A stretch of DNA of 64,000 bases from an uncultured Verrucomicrobiota bacterium. Lineage in GTDB: Bacteria; Verrucomicrobiota; Verrucomicrobiia; Verrucomicrobiales; V1-33. Location: assembly GCA_942492905.1 (NCBI GenBank), contig OW818657.1:6157511-6221510 (forward strand). Reading direction: 5' to 3'. The position numbers and the translations under genes are program-made. Below are positions 3,745 to 10,484 of this stretch, in pieces (the stretch's first letter is position 1; every line of letters starts with the position of its first letter). The notes below the pieces were generated by a model. The model saw only the letters and a program-made list of their open reading frames with translations, made no database searches and was not told the origin of the DNA.

Positions 3745-4758
3745 ATGAAAATCGTCTTCAATCTCCTCATCATTGCCCTCGCCGTTGCGGCGGGCTGGTA
3801 TTTCCAACCGGGAATCGTGACCTCCATGGACGCCAGCAAGGCGAATACGCAAAAGAAACGCAGCGATGAAATTGCGGCCGCCGTGAAACAAGCCACCGGA
3901 GCCACCCTGCCGGACGGCACCACCGCCAAAGAATCCGCCGCGGCCAGTTCCGCCCGGCAATTGGCGGAATCCATGCGCAAGGGTGCTCCTTCCCCTACCA
4001 CCCCCGCCCCTGAACTCCCCGGCGGCACCTCCACCACCCCACCCGCCGGGACGCCTGTCCCGGAAACCCCCGTGGTGGCCCAGGTGGACGAAATTGACGC
4101 CAAATACCCCCTGCCGACCTTCAAAGAGATTGAAGAGATCACCAAAGAGTGGTCGACGATTCCCAGCCGCGCCTTTCCCCGCACCGTCAAGACCCTCGTC
4201 GCCATCAACCTCGAAGGCCCCAATGGGAAAATTTCCCTCCCGGAAAAATCCGAAGCCCTCGCCATCGGCATGACCAGGGGGATGCTCTCTCTGATGAAGA
4301 GCCGGGAAGACCCTGCCCGCGGTCTGGTCCCGCTCGCCAACACCGATCTCAAGGAAACGATGACGGCGCTCTACGAAAAGTACAAGGCCTACAAAACCGA
4401 ACTGGTCATGAAACAACGGGCCCGGGCCCGCGGCCTCAAAGCCCGCGCCAATGGTGCCACCGATGCCGAGTTGGCCGCCGCCGGTCCCAAACCGAAGGTC
4501 GAATCCGGCGGCATCGTCACCGCCATGGTCGAAAGTCTGCGCTTCAAACAAATTAAAGAGACCACCGAGGACCGCATCACCGCCTGGGGCGACCTCAACA
4601 TTGAGCAATTTGAAGGCACCAGCTACTGGACCGGCACCATCCAATGCACCGTGGACAACCCCATCTTCGGCCCTACCCCCACCGAACTCATGGCCTTGAT
4701 CCGGGACGATAAAGTCGTGAAATGGCTGTATTCCGGCTCGAAAGAGGAAGTGCAGTAG
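3745..4758 (+). CDS. Hypothetical exported protein with Pro/Thr/Ala-rich linker
   Basis: 337-aa ORF with host-like codon usage and N-terminal hydrophobic helix. Confidence 0.75.
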   Translation: MKIVFNLLIIALAVAAGWYFQPGIVTSMDASKANTQKKRSDEIAAAVKQATGATLPDGTTAKESAAASSARQLAESMRKGAPSPTTPAPELPGGTSTTPPAGTPVPETPVVAQVDEIDAKYPLPTFKEIEEITKEWSTIPSRAFPRTVKTLVAINLEGPNGKISLPEKSEALAIGMTRGMLSLMKSREDPARGLVPLANTDLKETMTALYEKYKAYKTELVMKQRARARGLKARANGATDAELAAAGPKPKVESGGIVTAMVESLRFKQIKETTEDRITAWGDLNIEQFEGTSYWTGTIQCTVDNPIFGPTPTELMALIRDDKVVKWLYSGSKEEVQ

Positions 4759-4860
4759 TCCCTCCTTCCTCCTGCGGCGTTTCTCCCGCGCCATTCCCCG
4801 GCAAAGATGGTGCTCGACATTTGTTTAATTTATCTTAAGTTTCCGTAGTTTTCCATCCTT

Positions 4861-5385
4861 ATGCTCAAGGCCCTTTTCTTCTCCGTGCTCGCCGTCGGAC
4901 TCACCGCCGCCTACCTGCTCACCACCAGCCACGCCGAACCCCTCCCCGCTGGAGCCAAAGCCCCGACGGATGCCGTCCTGGATCAGGACGGTAAACCCTT
5001 CGACCTCGCCGCCGCCTACAAAAAAGGCCTCACCCTGGTGTATTTCTACCCGAAGGCCGACACCCCCGGTTGCACCAAACAAGCCTGCAGCCTGCGCGAC
5101 GAAAATGCTGAAATCACCAAGGCCGGCATCCAGATCATTGGGGTGAGCATGGACAAACCGGAGGCCCAAAAGGCCTTCAAAGAAAAATACAAACTCCCCT
5201 TCACCCTCCTCGCCGACCACGACGGCAAAATCGTCGCCGGCTTCGGGGTGCCCACCATGCGCATCGGCTTCAGCAAACGCCAGTCCTTTCTCGTCAAAGA
5301 CGGACTCATCGTCTGGACCGATCCCGAAGTGAACCCCGCCACCCACACCGCCAAGGTGCTGGAAGCGGCCGCGAAACTGAAATAA
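4861..5385 (+). CDS. bcp: Peroxiredoxin, Bcp/PrxQ family, with signal peptide
   Basis: YFYPKADTPGCTKQAC motif. Confidence 0.9.
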   Translation: MLKALFFSVLAVGLTAAYLLTTSHAEPLPAGAKAPTDAVLDQDGKPFDLAAAYKKGLTLVYFYPKADTPGCTKQACSLRDENAEITKAGIQIIGVSMDKPEAQKAFKEKYKLPFTLLADHDGKIVAGFGVPTMRIGFSKRQSFLVKDGLIVWTDPEVNPATHTAKVLEAAAKLK

Positions 5386-6128: not shown

Positions 6129-9125
6129 ATGCTCTCCGCCGCCCAGATCCGCCAGTCCTTCCTCGATTTCTTCAAGTCCAAGCAGCACACCATCGTGCCC
6201 TCGGCCAGCCTGATGCCGGACAGCCCGAACCTGCTCTTCACCAACGCGGGGATGAACCAGTTCGTGCCCATCTTCCTCGGCCAGATCGAGTGCCCCTACA
6301 AACCCGGCCGCGCCGCTGATACCCAAAAGTGCATCCGCGCCGGCGGCAAACACAACGATCTGGATGATGTCGGTCTCGACACCTATCACCACACCTTTTT
6401 CGAAATGCTGGGGAACTGGTCCTTCGGCGACTACTTCAAAAAGGAAGCCATCGCCTGGTCTTGGGAGCTCATCATCGACGTCTGGAAATTCCCCGCCGAA
6501 CGCGTTTACGCCACCATCTACCAGCCGGACAAATCCCTCGGCGACCCCGCCGAACGCGACCAGGAAGCCTGGGACCTCTGGGCCGAAAAATTCCGCGGCG
6601 CCGGCCTGGATCCTGACATCCACATCGTCAACGGGAACAAAAAAGACAACTTCTGGATGATGGGCGAAACCGGCCCCTGCGGCCCCTGCACCGAAATCCA
6701 CATCGATCTCACCCCCGGCCCGGTGCGCACCAGCGTCGAGCGACAGAAAGAAGGCGCCCTGCTCGTCAACGGCCCCGACGCCCGCTGCATCGAAATCTGG
6801 AATAACGTCTTCATCCAATACAACGCCAACCCCGACGGCAGCTTCGTCCCCCTCCCCGCCCAGCACGTCGATACCGGCATGGGCTTCGAGCGCGTCGTCT
6901 CCATCATCCACGGCACCCAGAACTTCACCACCTTCGAGCACTCCAATAAAATCTCGAACTACGACACCGACGTCTTCCGCCCGCTCTTCGACGAAATCGA
7001 AAAACTCAGCGGCAAAAAATACCTCAGCACCCTCCCCGCCGCCGGCAGCACCGGCGAGACCGAGCAGGAAAAAATCGACATCGCCTTCCGCGTCATCGCC
7101 GACCACATCCGCACCCTCAGTTTTTCCATCGCCGACGGCATCACCCCCGGCAACAACGACCGCAACTACGTCCTGAGAAGAATTCTCCGCCGCGCCGTCA
7201 AATACGGCCGCACCCTCGGCTTCACCGAGCCCTTCTTCTACAAACTCACCGACACCCTCGCCTCCCACATGGGCGAAGTCTTCCCCGAACTCCGCGCCCG
7301 CAAAGAGTTCATCAAACAGACCCTCAAAACCGAGGAGGAGGCGTTTAACCGGACTTTGGATAAGGGGATCGCGTTGTTTGAAACTGAAGCTAAAACCATC
7401 GAAGTTATCCTGAAACACTTTGAGCAGACTTCCGGGATTGATGAACGTAAAATGTCCCCAGGTGAGCATGAGGTGGACTTCTTTACCGAGTATCAAACTG
7501 ACCGATTCAAAGCCGATCCGGCCATCTCAATAGCTGTCCTTCAACTCATTTCCGAGGCTCTTGGGGATGCATCTTTGATCGAAAAGCTCACAGGTAAACC
7601 AGAAGAAATAGCCAGACAGTATGCCGAAATCATTCTCTACCCGAATAGATACGGCATCGTAAAAAACAAGCTCAAAGCACTCACTGCTTCCATCAGCGGA
7701 AATTTCGCTTTCCGTCTCTATGACGAACAAGGCTTCCCCCTCGACCTCACCGAACTCATGGCCCGCGAGCGCGGCCTGACGGTGGACAAGGAAGGCTTCG
7801 AAGTCCTGATGAACCAGCAGCGCGAGCGCGCCCGCGCCGCCCAGAAAAAATCCGTCATCAAACTCTCCGAAATCGAAACCAAGGAACCCACCACCTTCCT
7901 CGGTTACGACGCCGAAGAGACCGAATCCAAGGTCCTCGAAGTGGTCACCGTCGGCGACAAAACCGCGGTCATCCTGGATGCCACGCCTTGTTATGCGGAA
8001 ATGGGCGGACAGCTGGGCGATACCGGCACCCTGCTCGCCGGAGCGGAAGTATTGTCCATCGCCAACACGCAGAAATCAGGGAACACCTTCCTGCATTACC
8101 TCGCCTCGGATGACGTCACCCTGACGCCCGGAGCCGCCGTCACGGTGCGCATTGATGAAGCCCGCCGCGACGCCATTTCCCGCCACCACAGCGTGACGCA
8201 CCTCCTGCACTGGGCCCTGCACGAAGTGGTTAGCCACGATGCCACCCAGAAAGGTTCCTACGTCGGCCCGGAGAAGCTGACATTCGACTTCAACAGCGCC
8301 GCCCTCAGCCCGCAGCAGGTCGCCGACATCGAAAAACTGGTCAACGAACGCATCGTCGAAAACGCCCCGGTTTCCTGGTCCGAGGTGAAATATACCGACG
8401 TGAAATCCCGCCCGGAAATCATGCAGGCCTTCGGCGAAAAATACGGCGACACCGTCCGCGTCGTCCAGATCGGCGGCAACCCTAACGCCCTCGATGGCTA
8501 CAGCATGGAACTCTGCGGCGGCACCCACATCCGCCGCACCGGCCAGATCGGGCTTTTCAAAATCCTCAGCGAAGCCGCCACCGGAGCCGGCATCCGCCGC
8601 ATTGAAGCCGTCGCCGGTCTCCCCGCCTACGAGCAGGCCGCCGCCGATGCCACCCGCCTCAAACAACTCGCGGGCAAAATCGGCGCGCCCCTGCCGGACC
8701 TCGAAAAGAAAATCGACCTCCTCCTCGAGCAAACCAAGTCCCTCGAAAAAGCATTAAAGTCAGCCCAGCAGCGCGAAGCCGCTGGCCGCGCCAAGGAACT
8801 TCTCCCTAACGCCGAAGGCCCGGTCCTCATCGCCAACCTTGGCGACGTGGACGGCGACTACGCCATGGCCGTGAGCGACGCCCTGAAGTCCCTCTTCAAC
8901 GGCATCGTCGTCCTCGGCACCACCGGCGGCGGCAACGTCGCCCTCATCGCCACCGTGAGTAAAGACCACCAGGCCAAAATCCAAGCCGGTAAAATCATCC
9001 AAACCATCGCCCCCCACGTCGGAGGCAAAGGCGGCGGCAAACCCGACTTCGCCCGCGGCGGCGGCAAGGAAGTCAGCGGCTTGGATGCGGCCCTGGCCGA
9101 AGCCAGACGGCTGGCGGCTGGGTGA
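6129..9125 (+). CDS. alaS: Alanine--tRNA ligase with an internal ~93-aa insertion
   Basis: LLFTNAGMNQF, HHTFFEMLGNWSFGDYFK, DTGMGFER, HSVTHLLH, ELCGGTH, GGKGGG. Start at ATG 6129 (MLSAAQIRQSFLDFF); the track's 5730 start is an upstream extension. Confidence 0.98.
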   Translation: MLSAAQIRQSFLDFFKSKQHTIVPSASLMPDSPNLLFTNAGMNQFVPIFLGQIECPYKPGRAADTQKCIRAGGKHNDLDDVGLDTYHHTFFEMLGNWSFGDYFKKEAIAWSWELIIDVWKFPAERVYATIYQPDKSLGDPAERDQEAWDLWAEKFRGAGLDPDIHIVNGNKKDNFWMMGETGPCGPCTEIHIDLTPGPVRTSVERQKEGALLVNGPDARCIEIWNNVFIQYNANPDGSFVPLPAQHVDTGMGFERVVSIIHGTQNFTTFEHSNKISNYDTDVFRPLFDEIEKLSGKKYLSTLPAAGSTGETEQEKIDIAFRVIADHIRTLSFSIADGITPGNNDRNYVLRRILRRAVKYGRTLGFTEPFFYKLTDTLASHMGEVFPELRARKEFIKQTLKTEEEAFNRTLDKGIALFETEAKTIEVILKHFEQTSGIDERKMSPGEHEVDFFTEYQTDRFKADPAISIAVLQLISEALGDASLIEKLTGKPEEIARQYAEIILYPNRYGIVKNKLKALTASISGNFAFRLYDEQGFPLDLTELMARERGLTVDKEGFEVLMNQQRERARAAQKKSVIKLSEIETKEPTTFLGYDAEETESKVLEVVTVGDKTAVILDATPCYAEMGGQLGDTGTLLAGAEVLSIANTQKSGNTFLHYLASDDVTLTPGAAVTVRIDEARRDAISRHHSVTHLLHWALHEVVSHDATQKGSYVGPEKLTFDFNSAALSPQQVADIEKLVNERIVENAPVSWSEVKYTDVKSRPEIMQAFGEKYGDTVRVVQIGGNPNALDGYSMELCGGTHIRRTGQIGLFKILSEAATGAGIRRIEAVAGLPAYEQAAADATRLKQLAGKIGAPLPDLEKKIDLLLEQTKSLEKALKSAQQREAAGRAKELLPNAEGPVLIANLGDVDGDYAMAVSDALKSLFNGIVVLGTTGGGNVALIATVSKDHQAKIQAGKIIQTIAPHVGGKGGGKPDFARGGGKEVSGLDAALAEARRLAAG

Positions 9126-9142
9126 CTTATTGACTCCCCCTG

Positions 9143-9502
9143 TCATCCTCTCTCATCTTTCTTCCTCTCCGCGTATTTTGGTAGAAGCTGACGGTCGGTT
9201 GAAATTTTCGCCCGGTTCCGCAAATCCTCCTCAACTTTCGCGGCCACCACGCCCCGGATCATGATGAAACCGCATTTCGGACAAAACCATCCGGACCGTT
9301 TATCAAACCCCATCGATTCCCTGCTCCATCTGGAATCCCCACGTGCTGTGAAAAAGAGGTCCGGCCAAGCCAGACCATCGATCACGAGGCTGGACACCGA
9401 TTGACCCACTGAAAAATCACCCGCTTTGGTGGCCGCCCCGCAATCTGGACAGACAGGGGTTTCGCCAAGGTGCACACGGTTTAGCTTTTCCGAGTCTGAC
9501 AT
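9143..9502 (-). CDS. Small zinc-ribbon protein (two CxxC motifs)
   Basis: ATG 9502, MSDSEKLNR...CPDCG...CPKCG; lower GC than flanking genes. Confidence 0.6.
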   Translation of the reverse strand: MSDSEKLNRVHLGETPVCPDCGAATKAGDFSVGQSVSSLVIDGLAWPDLFFTARGDSRWSRESMGFDKRSGWFCPKCGFIMIRGVVAAKVEEDLRNRAKISTDRQLLPKYAERKKDERG

Positions 9503-9618
9503 AAGTCCGGCATTATCTTCGACCTGGCACTGAGCGCATCTACATTTTCTGAACCTATTTGCACGATAACGCCGAATGCCCAAACAATCATCATCGCAAA
9601 GCCCAATAGAAAGCGAAT

Positions 9619-9647
9619 TTGACGCGACGCACAAATATGCGCATATT
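9619..9647 (+). promoter_or_regulatory. Sigma70-like promoter with operator palindrome for the TA operon
   Basis: TTGACG (9619-9624), 17 nt, CATATT (9642-9647); perfect 14-bp palindrome AATATGCGCATATT (9634-9647) overlaps the -10. Confidence 0.6.
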
Positions 9648-9653
9648 CGCTTC

Positions 9654-9908
9654 ATGCGCACGACGATTGATCTTCCTGAGCCACTCTTCCACCGGGCGAA
9701 GCTTCTTGCGGTGCAGCGACGAGTGACACTTAAAAAGCTCATCACGGAGGTGCTGGAAACAGCATTCCATGAGCCTGTTCCTGTCTCCCGCCGCATGACC
9801 TCGCCTCCGGTTCCGTTTGAGGCTACCGGTCCGCTGCCTGCCCTGTCCAACCGGCAGATCGCTGAACTCTTTGAGGAGGAAGACCTCCGCAAAGCCGGTA
9901 TCCCATGA
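9654..9908 (+). CDS. vapB: Antitoxin, ribbon-helix-helix/CopG-like (VapB)
   Basis: MRTTIDLPEPLFHRAKLLAVQRRVTLKKLI; stop overlaps the toxin start (ATGA). Confidence 0.8.
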   Translation: MRTTIDLPEPLFHRAKLLAVQRRVTLKKLITEVLETAFHEPVPVSRRMTSPPVPFEATGPLPALSNRQIAELFEEEDLRKAGIP

Positions 9909-10333
9909 CTACTGTAGTGGATGTGAACGTGATGTTTGCGATTCTGGTGTCGGGCCATGCCCACCATCCGGCGGCGTGGGATTGGTGGCAGCAACAAGCG
10001 GATCAATCCGTCGCTTTGTGTCTATATTCACGAATGGGCACGCTGCGGCTGCTTTCCAATGCCAAAGCCATGGGAGGCAGACCGTTCATTCCGGAAAAGG
10101 CTCTCGATACTTGGGATATTATCGCTGCCGATCCGCGCTGTTTTTGGCTGGAAGCTGAAGCCAGCCATGATTTCCACCTCCGCCGGCTGGTCATCGGACG
10201 GCAAGCTTCCTCCAACCTGTGGACGGATGCCTGGTTTGCTGCGCTGGCCTCCTCGAACAATTCACGCCTGACTTCTTTCGATTCTGATTTTCGGTCATTC
10301 AACTTGGCGAATTTTGAACACCTCTCGTCATGA
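9905..10333 (+). CDS. vapC: PIN-domain toxin VapC
   Basis: VVDVNV, WTDAWFAALA, TSFDSDF PIN motifs; H..HPAA.DWW subfamily signature. Confidence 0.88.
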   Translation: MTTVVDVNVMFAILVSGHAHHPAAWDWWQQQADQSVALCLYSRMGTLRLLSNAKAMGGRPFIPEKALDTWDIIAADPRCFWLEAEASHDFHLRRLVIGRQASSNLWTDAWFAALASSNNSRLTSFDSDFRSFNLANFEHLSS

Positions 10334-10484
10334 TACCATGGCTCGCCTTCCGCCACACCGCCCAAATTCCCCTACATTCCCCGGCACAACTCCCGCTTTC
10401 CCTTTGCAAAATGGCCCGGCGGCACAGATGGAGAATTTGGGCACAAGATTTGTTCAACAAACCTTGATTTTTCACTCATTTTAA

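Follow-up and report, generated by a model that had tools for sequence, protein, structure and literature searches.

How does an essential enzyme of translation come to carry, in a single genome, a long segment that is foreign in composition to the gene around it? This question is raised by alaS, the gene of alanyl-tRNA synthetase (AlaRS), in a 64,000-nucleotide stretch of contig OW818657.1 from an uncultured Verrucomicrobiota bacterium (the whole stretch is called the window below). The host is a soil-type Verrucomicrobium, and alaS, an essential enzyme gene, is otherwise intact apart from an in-frame insert of 103 codons. The existence of the insert, its open frame and its foreign composition are established, as are the hypervariability of the site among near-identical orthologues and the co-conversion of its flanks. 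The features concerned, in window positions, are the following:

6129..9125, + strand: alaS coding sequence (host gene), 998 aa plus stop, with the Pfam domains tRNA-synt_2c, tRNA_SAD and DHHA1
7341..7382, + strand: 5' flank AFNRTLDKGIALFE, codons 405-418, conserved, with G/T-ending codons atypical for the gene
7383..7691, + strand: insert, 103 codons, net gain of 95 aa, an AT-richer orphan, predicted helical
7692..7730, + strand: 3' flank ISGNFAFRLYDEQ, codons 522-534, conserved residues in atypical, allele-specific codons, including Asp532

The window enzyme scores 818.7 bits against the alaS equivalog model TIGR00344 in the NCBIfam scan. Its true start is the Met of MLSAAQIRQ, at which the orthologues begin as well, and the extension of the open reading frame (ORF) upstream from 5730 is unused in relatives. 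The gene order AhpC, NYN/YacP, alaS, enolase is common to the window, L081, L082, and L085 (relatives are designated by L and P numbers), and the loci of P0002, P0003, and P0008 show the same order. Between the end of GIALFE at 7382 and the start of ISGNFAFRLYD at 7692 there are 103 in-frame codons, exactly the number of residues counted in the preliminary description of this DNA; the net gain with respect to the 903-aa orthologues is 95 aa. In alignments with AlaRS structures that have been solved, residues 420-519 of the query find no counterpart, and human AlaRS has about six residues there. AlaRS has been cited as a synthetase with a single prototype architecture throughout life, and in the A. 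fulgidus enzyme D450 is one of two residues contacting the G3:U70 identity pair of tRNA-Ala (PMC8887476). Query residue 528 is aligned with chain residue 446 of 3WQY, an offset that makes Asp532 of the LYD motif (7722-7724) the probable equivalent of D450. The slot, a surface loop of the tRNA-recognition domain, ends 11 residues before Asp532.

The GC content of the insert is 45.3% (140/309), which agrees to the nucleotide with the earlier hand count. At third codon positions, the GC content (GC3) of the insert is 0.47, and that of the remaining alaS codons is 0.82. Among the 30 long ORFs of the window, the lowest GC3 over 100 codons is 0.46 for alaS and 0.60 for the next-lowest ORF, and all 100-codon stretches with GC3 below 0.55 lie within alaS, which is the sole such outlier. 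Only 0.3% of shuffled sequences keep an open frame, and each of the other five frames is interrupted by stops. Both the compositional outlier and the open frame support the earlier view that the segment is foreign and in frame. AlphaFold2 (AF2) models were obtained for the insert alone and for the insert in context, both of low confidence. In AF2, the host helix 392-418 runs on to residue 435 and more helices appear at 464-478, 491-503, and 512-519; the insert is thus predicted, with low confidence, to form amphipathic helices and a protrusion continuing the host helix. The predicted local distance difference test (pLDDT) values of the insert are 48-69, and Foldseek against the PDB returned nothing significant (the best match, with E 1.7, came from a low-confidence model). 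The structural check proposed in the preliminary description therefore yielded predicted helices and no fold match.

Slot content and flanks among alaS alleles

The variability of the slot was first measured in 80 alaS loci of the GTDB set, with slot length taken as the distance between the F..TL..G and LYD..GFP motifs. This distance ranges from 36 to 282 residues, and most of the inserts are mutually unrelated. On an AlaRS tree computed with the slot masked, insert length is scattered, and sisters differ markedly (0 vs 245, 7 vs 222, and 2 vs 95 extra residues). From the large protein collection came a set of closer relatives, 28 cluster representatives whose identity to the window enzyme is about 92% or higher in each half. 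No insert is present in 20 of them. Four have orphan inserts unrelated to one another, with lengths of 24, 36, 95 (the window), and 105 aa, and four carry an insert of 240-260 aa with an IS200-like Y1_Tnp domain, characteristic of repetitive extragenic palindrome (REP)-associated tyrosine transposases (RAYTs), in two subtypes. Within the 120 nearest proteins, 20 unrelated insert families were recognized, and 79 of the 120 are without an insert of 13 aa or more. Outside the slot, orthologous alaS genes share 92-97% DNA identity, and inside it their sequences are unrelated. The alignment of related alaS genes thus shows that the insert is neither conserved nor vertically inherited, and the slot is as hypervariable as had been supposed. 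In genomes with about 95% DNA identity, the content of the loop next to the putative G3:U70-reading Asp extends from none at all to a transposase domain of 260 aa, and such natural variation shows where large insertions are tolerated in an essential enzyme.

Orphan inserts of 42-90 aa are also found in the same loop of AlaRS from Bacteroidota, Rhodothermota, Cloacimonadota, and Planctomycetota (L072, L063, L046, and L050). The L072 insert has a GC3 of 0.43 as compared to 0.92 for its host gene, and the inserts of the other phyla are likewise AT-richer than the host.

The composition and the divergence of the inserts give some indication of their history. Insert GC3 lies below that of the host gene in 35 of the 37 loci with a non-zero difference. 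The median GC3 shift is -0.27 for singleton inserts and -0.05 for those shared with relatives (p = 3e-4), the pattern expected if inserts are imported and then ameliorate. For inserts common to relatives, dN/dS is 0.10-0.41, compared with flank values of 0.03-0.17, from which it follows that retained inserts are translated and under a constraint weaker than that on the enzyme.

The evidence for exchange comes from the flanks. In a per-codon map, host-atypical codons begin sharply at codon 405 (nt 7341) and end at codon 534 (nt 7730), and the atypical tract therefore extends over conserved codons at both ends, 14 at the 5' and 13 at the 3' end. The preliminary description drew attention to a codon switch in the 5' flank, and this switch is real and sharp, from nt 7341; however, the flank sequence does not belong to this insert in particular, as it is common to relatives with other inserts. 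The 5' arm GCG TTT AAC CGG ACT TTG GAT AAG GGG ATC is near-identical in L081, L082, and L083 and partly matched in L086, all of them with different inserts, and the window diverges from L081 only from codon 417/418 on. L084 has host-type codons at this arm. The 5' flank looks like an older imported arm common to several alleles. For the 3' arm (ISGxFAFRLYDEQ), 9-22 of 48 nt distinguish each relative from the window, whereas the background divergence is 5.5-8% (for the excess, p lies between 1e-2 and 4e-13), and the alleles reconverge near codon 535. Such an allele-specific 3' flank indicates exchange by homologous recombination. The 3' arm of P0004 belongs to a type (AFKLYDTYGFP) that is characteristic of other clades. 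The atypical flank codons, the allele-specific 3' arms, and this flank of another clade all agree with the proposal, made earlier from the window sequence, of a swap through conserved flanks. Similarly, a tract of low GC3 spills into the conserved flanks, over up to about 45 codons, in the independent lineages L029, L033, L016, L003, and L005. The alleles P0008-P0027 of the closest relatives, which have no insert (L085 3001-5712), contain a longer divergent tract around the slot, equivalent to window residues about 330-580, in which DNA identity is 71-89% as against about 95% elsewhere; therefore, even the no-insert allele looks recombinant.

Origin of the insert and reasons for its persistence

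The insert is probably one allele of an AlaRS loop that is hypervariable in length and exchanged by recombination, and it is most likely a tolerated helical passenger. It is proposed that a tract of about 350-390 nt (from about 7341/7380 to 7730), comprising the insert and conserved flank codons, would have been imported by homologous recombination or gene conversion. The donor would be another alaS allele of lower GC3. The 3' crossover is proposed to lie near nt 7731 and the 5' side within the arm already common to other alleles. The insert would be translated as part of the enzyme and presumably retained in the mature protein, as a helical protrusion prolonging the host helix, and it most likely persists since the loop tolerates insertions, with little or no function and not for defence. 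In this way, a core translation gene would have undergone intragenic horizontal transfer, a point of importance for phylogenetic markers and for gene clustering at fixed identity.

Some of the data weigh against this interpretation. No match to the insert or to the 3' flank, by which a donor allele could be recognized, was found in any collection searched, and we therefore infer import only from composition and the comparison of alleles. The AT-richness of inserts in all hosts, low-GC hosts included, is not fully explained. The pLDDT values of the insert are too low for the models to establish a benign protrusion or an independent domain. Moreover, near-neutrality is an assumption, and the many alleles among near-identical genomes beside the tRNA-identity Asp could reflect selection.

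The search for relatives of the insert was extensive. No homologue was found by a word-indexed search of 5.8 billion clustered proteins or by exhaustive phmmer over 1.84 billion representatives, and no match to the insert resulted from back-translated scans of genome and metagenome contigs or from blastn against plasmids and phages. Phmmer of the insert against 80 other inserts of the same slot gave nothing, and neither did tblastx, in any frame, against RAYT elements and other inserts. The exact 3'-flank pattern had no match in metagenomes. The insert contains no meaningful direct repeats, and neither the 64-kb window nor the searched collections contain another copy of it. Scans with Pfam, PADLOC, and PHROGs showed no match on the insert, and the NCBIfam scan showed no meaningful one.

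If the diversity of the slot is considered as adaptive, then an antagonist (a phage protein, a toxin, or a tRNA mimic) would bind AlaRS here, and the inserts would serve as shields, decoys, or escape variants. We regard this explanation as doubtful. The six kinds of slot content in the 28 close representatives, whose genomes are about 95% identical in DNA, the repeated imports from diverged donors, the proximity of the slot to the presumed G3:U70-reading Asp, and the purifying selection on retained inserts would all be consistent with it; however, a permissive loop together with recombination suffices for the same observations. The inserts have no feature in common, roughly two thirds of the nearest proteins (the 79 of 120 mentioned above) do without one of 13 aa or more, and no defence, phage, or toxin family or fold was matched. 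We know of no antagonist of AlaRS. An anti-phage defence or toxin domain was also rejected as a candidate for the window insert itself, which matches no known family or fold (PADLOC, PHROGs, Pfam, NCBIfam, and Foldseek). With these negative results, and with most relatives lacking an insert, the role in defence, as decoy, or in toxin evasion that the preliminary description had envisaged is unsupported, yet a defence or decoy role is possible, given the striking diversity among near-identical genomes and the site beside the tRNA-identity residue. If the diversity is indeed selected, then an antagonist of AlaRS as yet unknown would be indicated.

The second alternative assumes a function for the enzyme itself. 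Appended domains alter synthetase biology in eukaryotes, and the insert might be an accessory domain, that is, a lineage-specific module altering tRNA contacts, oligomerisation, or partner recruitment. Its position in the tRNA-recognition domain near the putative identity-reading Asp, its predicted amphipathic helices, and the constraint on inserts common to relatives could be explained in this way. However, the window insert is present in one genome only among 15 billion proteins, the closest relatives have no insert or unrelated sequences, and the confidence of the models is low, which renders such a function improbable.

In-frame RAYT domains in housekeeping proteins

The RAYT inserts of relatives and the window insert occupy the same loop, between ...LFE(S/T)EA and ISGxFAFRLYD. 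The RAYT inserts hold a complete IS200-like Y1 domain with the HUH and Tyr motifs kept. These elements, together with others in a second AlaRS loop and in further host proteins, are located as follows:

L024, 2947-3632: in-frame RAYT domain in the AlaRS loop of the window insert
L065, 3309-3898: in-frame RAYT domain in the same loop
L075, 4266-5017: in-frame RAYT domain in the same loop
L084, 4266-4968: in-frame RAYT domain in the same loop
L086, about 4341-5074: in-frame RAYT domain in the same loop
L031 (= L145), 3888-4780: RAYT domain in the second AlaRS loop, also found in L139, L104, L157, and L166
L088: RAYT domain in RecG
L163: RAYT domain in threonyl-tRNA synthetase (ThrRS)
L153: RAYT domain in CarB
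L148: RAYT domain in a PFL-like enzyme

The Y1_Tnp score is above the cutoff in L075, L031, L163, and L148. Terminal inverted repeats (TIRs) flank the RAYT inserts of L084 (62 nt at 95%), L075 (23 nt at 100%), and L086 (18 nt at 100%), and their translation yields linkers in which G, P, V, T, and A are abundant. The identity between RAYTs is uncoupled from that between the host AlaRS enzymes. A census of hosts was made with the best 80 genomic relatives of the AlaRS-loop RAYT (L087-L166), nearly all of them from Verrucomicrobiota. About 76 of these lie in frame inside large proteins and about four look free-standing. The hosts are RecG (35), AlaRS (28, in two loops), ThrRS (8), CarB (2), and a PFL-like (glycyl-radical) enzyme (1), and two further relatives, L095 and L107, are placed in other long ORFs.

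The second AlaRS loop corresponds to the STLPAAGSTGE region (window residues about 303-312, nt 7035-7064) and holds an in-frame RAYT in some genomes; small inserts are present there in the close relatives P0005, P0006, and P0029. In RecG, the loop concerned is located between APTxxLA and GTHAL. RecG proteins without RAYT (L189, L196, and L237) have in this loop short peptides matching translated inverted repeats, e.g., SSSRRGGVTSTRDACATQ. These peptides look like footprints of lost elements.

Could the window insert be a decayed element of this kind, the relic of an in-frame RAYT/TIR or of another element formerly in the loop? RAYT elements with terminal inverted repeats do reside in the same loop of relatives, a 27-aa RAYT relic was found in P0077/P0078, and the 5' arm of the window resembles that of the RAYT-bearing allele L086. 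Nevertheless, we give this origin very little credence. In the Pfam scan, the window insert was without the Y1_Tnp domain and its HUH and Tyr motifs; it shows no similarity to RAYT in any frame, and no inverted repeat pairs or palindrome were detected within 7300-7780. It is AT-rich and helical by prediction, unlike the linkers encoded by inverted repeats, which are rich in G, P, A, and V. Besides RAYTs, the RecG loop contains short TIR footprints only and no large AT-rich orphan inserts, and orphan inserts are present in phyla without this RAYT subfamily; the idea that orphan inserts are a by-product of the RAYT target site is therefore unsupported. A RAYT-relic origin of the insert is unlikely.

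Irrespective of the window insert, the way of life of this RAYT subfamily resembles, by analogy, that of inteins without splicing. Neither this slot nor RAYT domains lying in frame in synthetases or other host proteins were found described in the literature searched. A broader model can be put forward tentatively, with rather low confidence: the AlaRS loop may be one landing site in an undescribed lifestyle of TIR-flanked in-frame HUH (RAYT-like) elements, whose nicking and excision would create a recombination hotspot. Cassette replacement, orphan inserts like that of the window included, could then give rise to an essential synthetase that is hypervariable at the level of strains beside the tRNA-identity residue. 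Apart from this model, the locus offers access to what may be a new class of in-frame mobile elements.

Removed sequences, known systems, and the region downstream of alaS

That the segment is an artefact or a sequence removed before function (an assembly chimera, an intein, or an intron) is scarcely credible, since against the single observation of the window allele stand the entry of the window AlaRS in the protein database, on a 6.3-Mb contig, the open reading frame, independent assemblies with other in-frame inserts at the same loop, no Hint domain or splice-junction residues, a length too short for an intein, and no significant Rfam match. The insert begins with TEAKT and ends with LTAS, after which Ile follows, and there is accordingly no N-terminal Cys/Ser and no C-terminal His-Asn with Cys/Ser/Thr. 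A Hint domain gave no Pfam hit at E up to 1, and the net 95 aa compare with about 130 aa at least for a Hint/intein splicing domain. In the Rfam scan of 7000-8100, the best E was 0.32, for an unrelated small RNA model, and the segment is an open frame contiguous with alaS, which argues against a group I/II intron. The absence of intein and intron hallmarks noticed in the preliminary description is thereby confirmed in junction residues, Hint domain, and Rfam. Three other kinds of element were considered and rejected as well. Miniature inverted-repeat transposable elements, Rickettsia palindromic elements (RPEs), and REPs do not fit a segment with no terminal inverted repeats or palindrome, and an invertible cassette was dismissed too. 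For the target of a diversity-generating retroelement, no template-like second copy exists in the window, where no search for a reverse transcriptase was made.

The comparison with known systems shows where the locus agrees with them and where it departs. Genes of the mosaic type, such as FliC with its variable central domain or mosaic pbp, encode surface-exposed or drug-targeted products with an obvious selective agent. The alaS slot shares with them conserved flanks around unrelated centres, compositional breaks, and co-converted flanks; however, its product is a cytoplasmic essential synthetase, the variable part may be absent or up to 260 aa long, and no donor allele was found. As with inteins, conserved sites of housekeeping proteins are occupied in frame by mobile segments, and flanks are co-converted; in contrast to them, splice residues and the Hint domain are missing, the insert is shorter than mini-inteins, and it would presumably be retained in the protein. 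RPEs of Rickettsia, intragenic REPs, and TIR-flanked RAYTs (TIRYT) are already known (PMC3733652). Like the RPEs and REPs, the insert is an extra in-frame peptide in a loop of a functional housekeeping protein, apparently tolerated (PMC3733652), but these elements are short, palindromic, and multi-copy, and the insert is 309 nt long, without palindrome or inverted repeat, and present as a single copy in the 64-kb window. As to RAYT/TIRYT elements, relatives hold such a domain and inverted repeats at exactly this loop; the window insert, in contrast, has neither Y1_Tnp nor inverted repeats, and the element of the relatives differs from the known ones in being translated within the host protein.

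Directly downstream of alaS, within a dip in GC content at 9100-10400, there is a toxin-antitoxin-like pair (9576-9908 and 9905-10333), in which an unassigned 110-aa ORF overlaps an ORF with a PIN domain. The same downstream position is occupied by a ParE pair in L081 and by other PIN pairs in L084 and L086. As different modules are found downstream of alaS, the interval between alaS and enolase is therefore also a variable spot.

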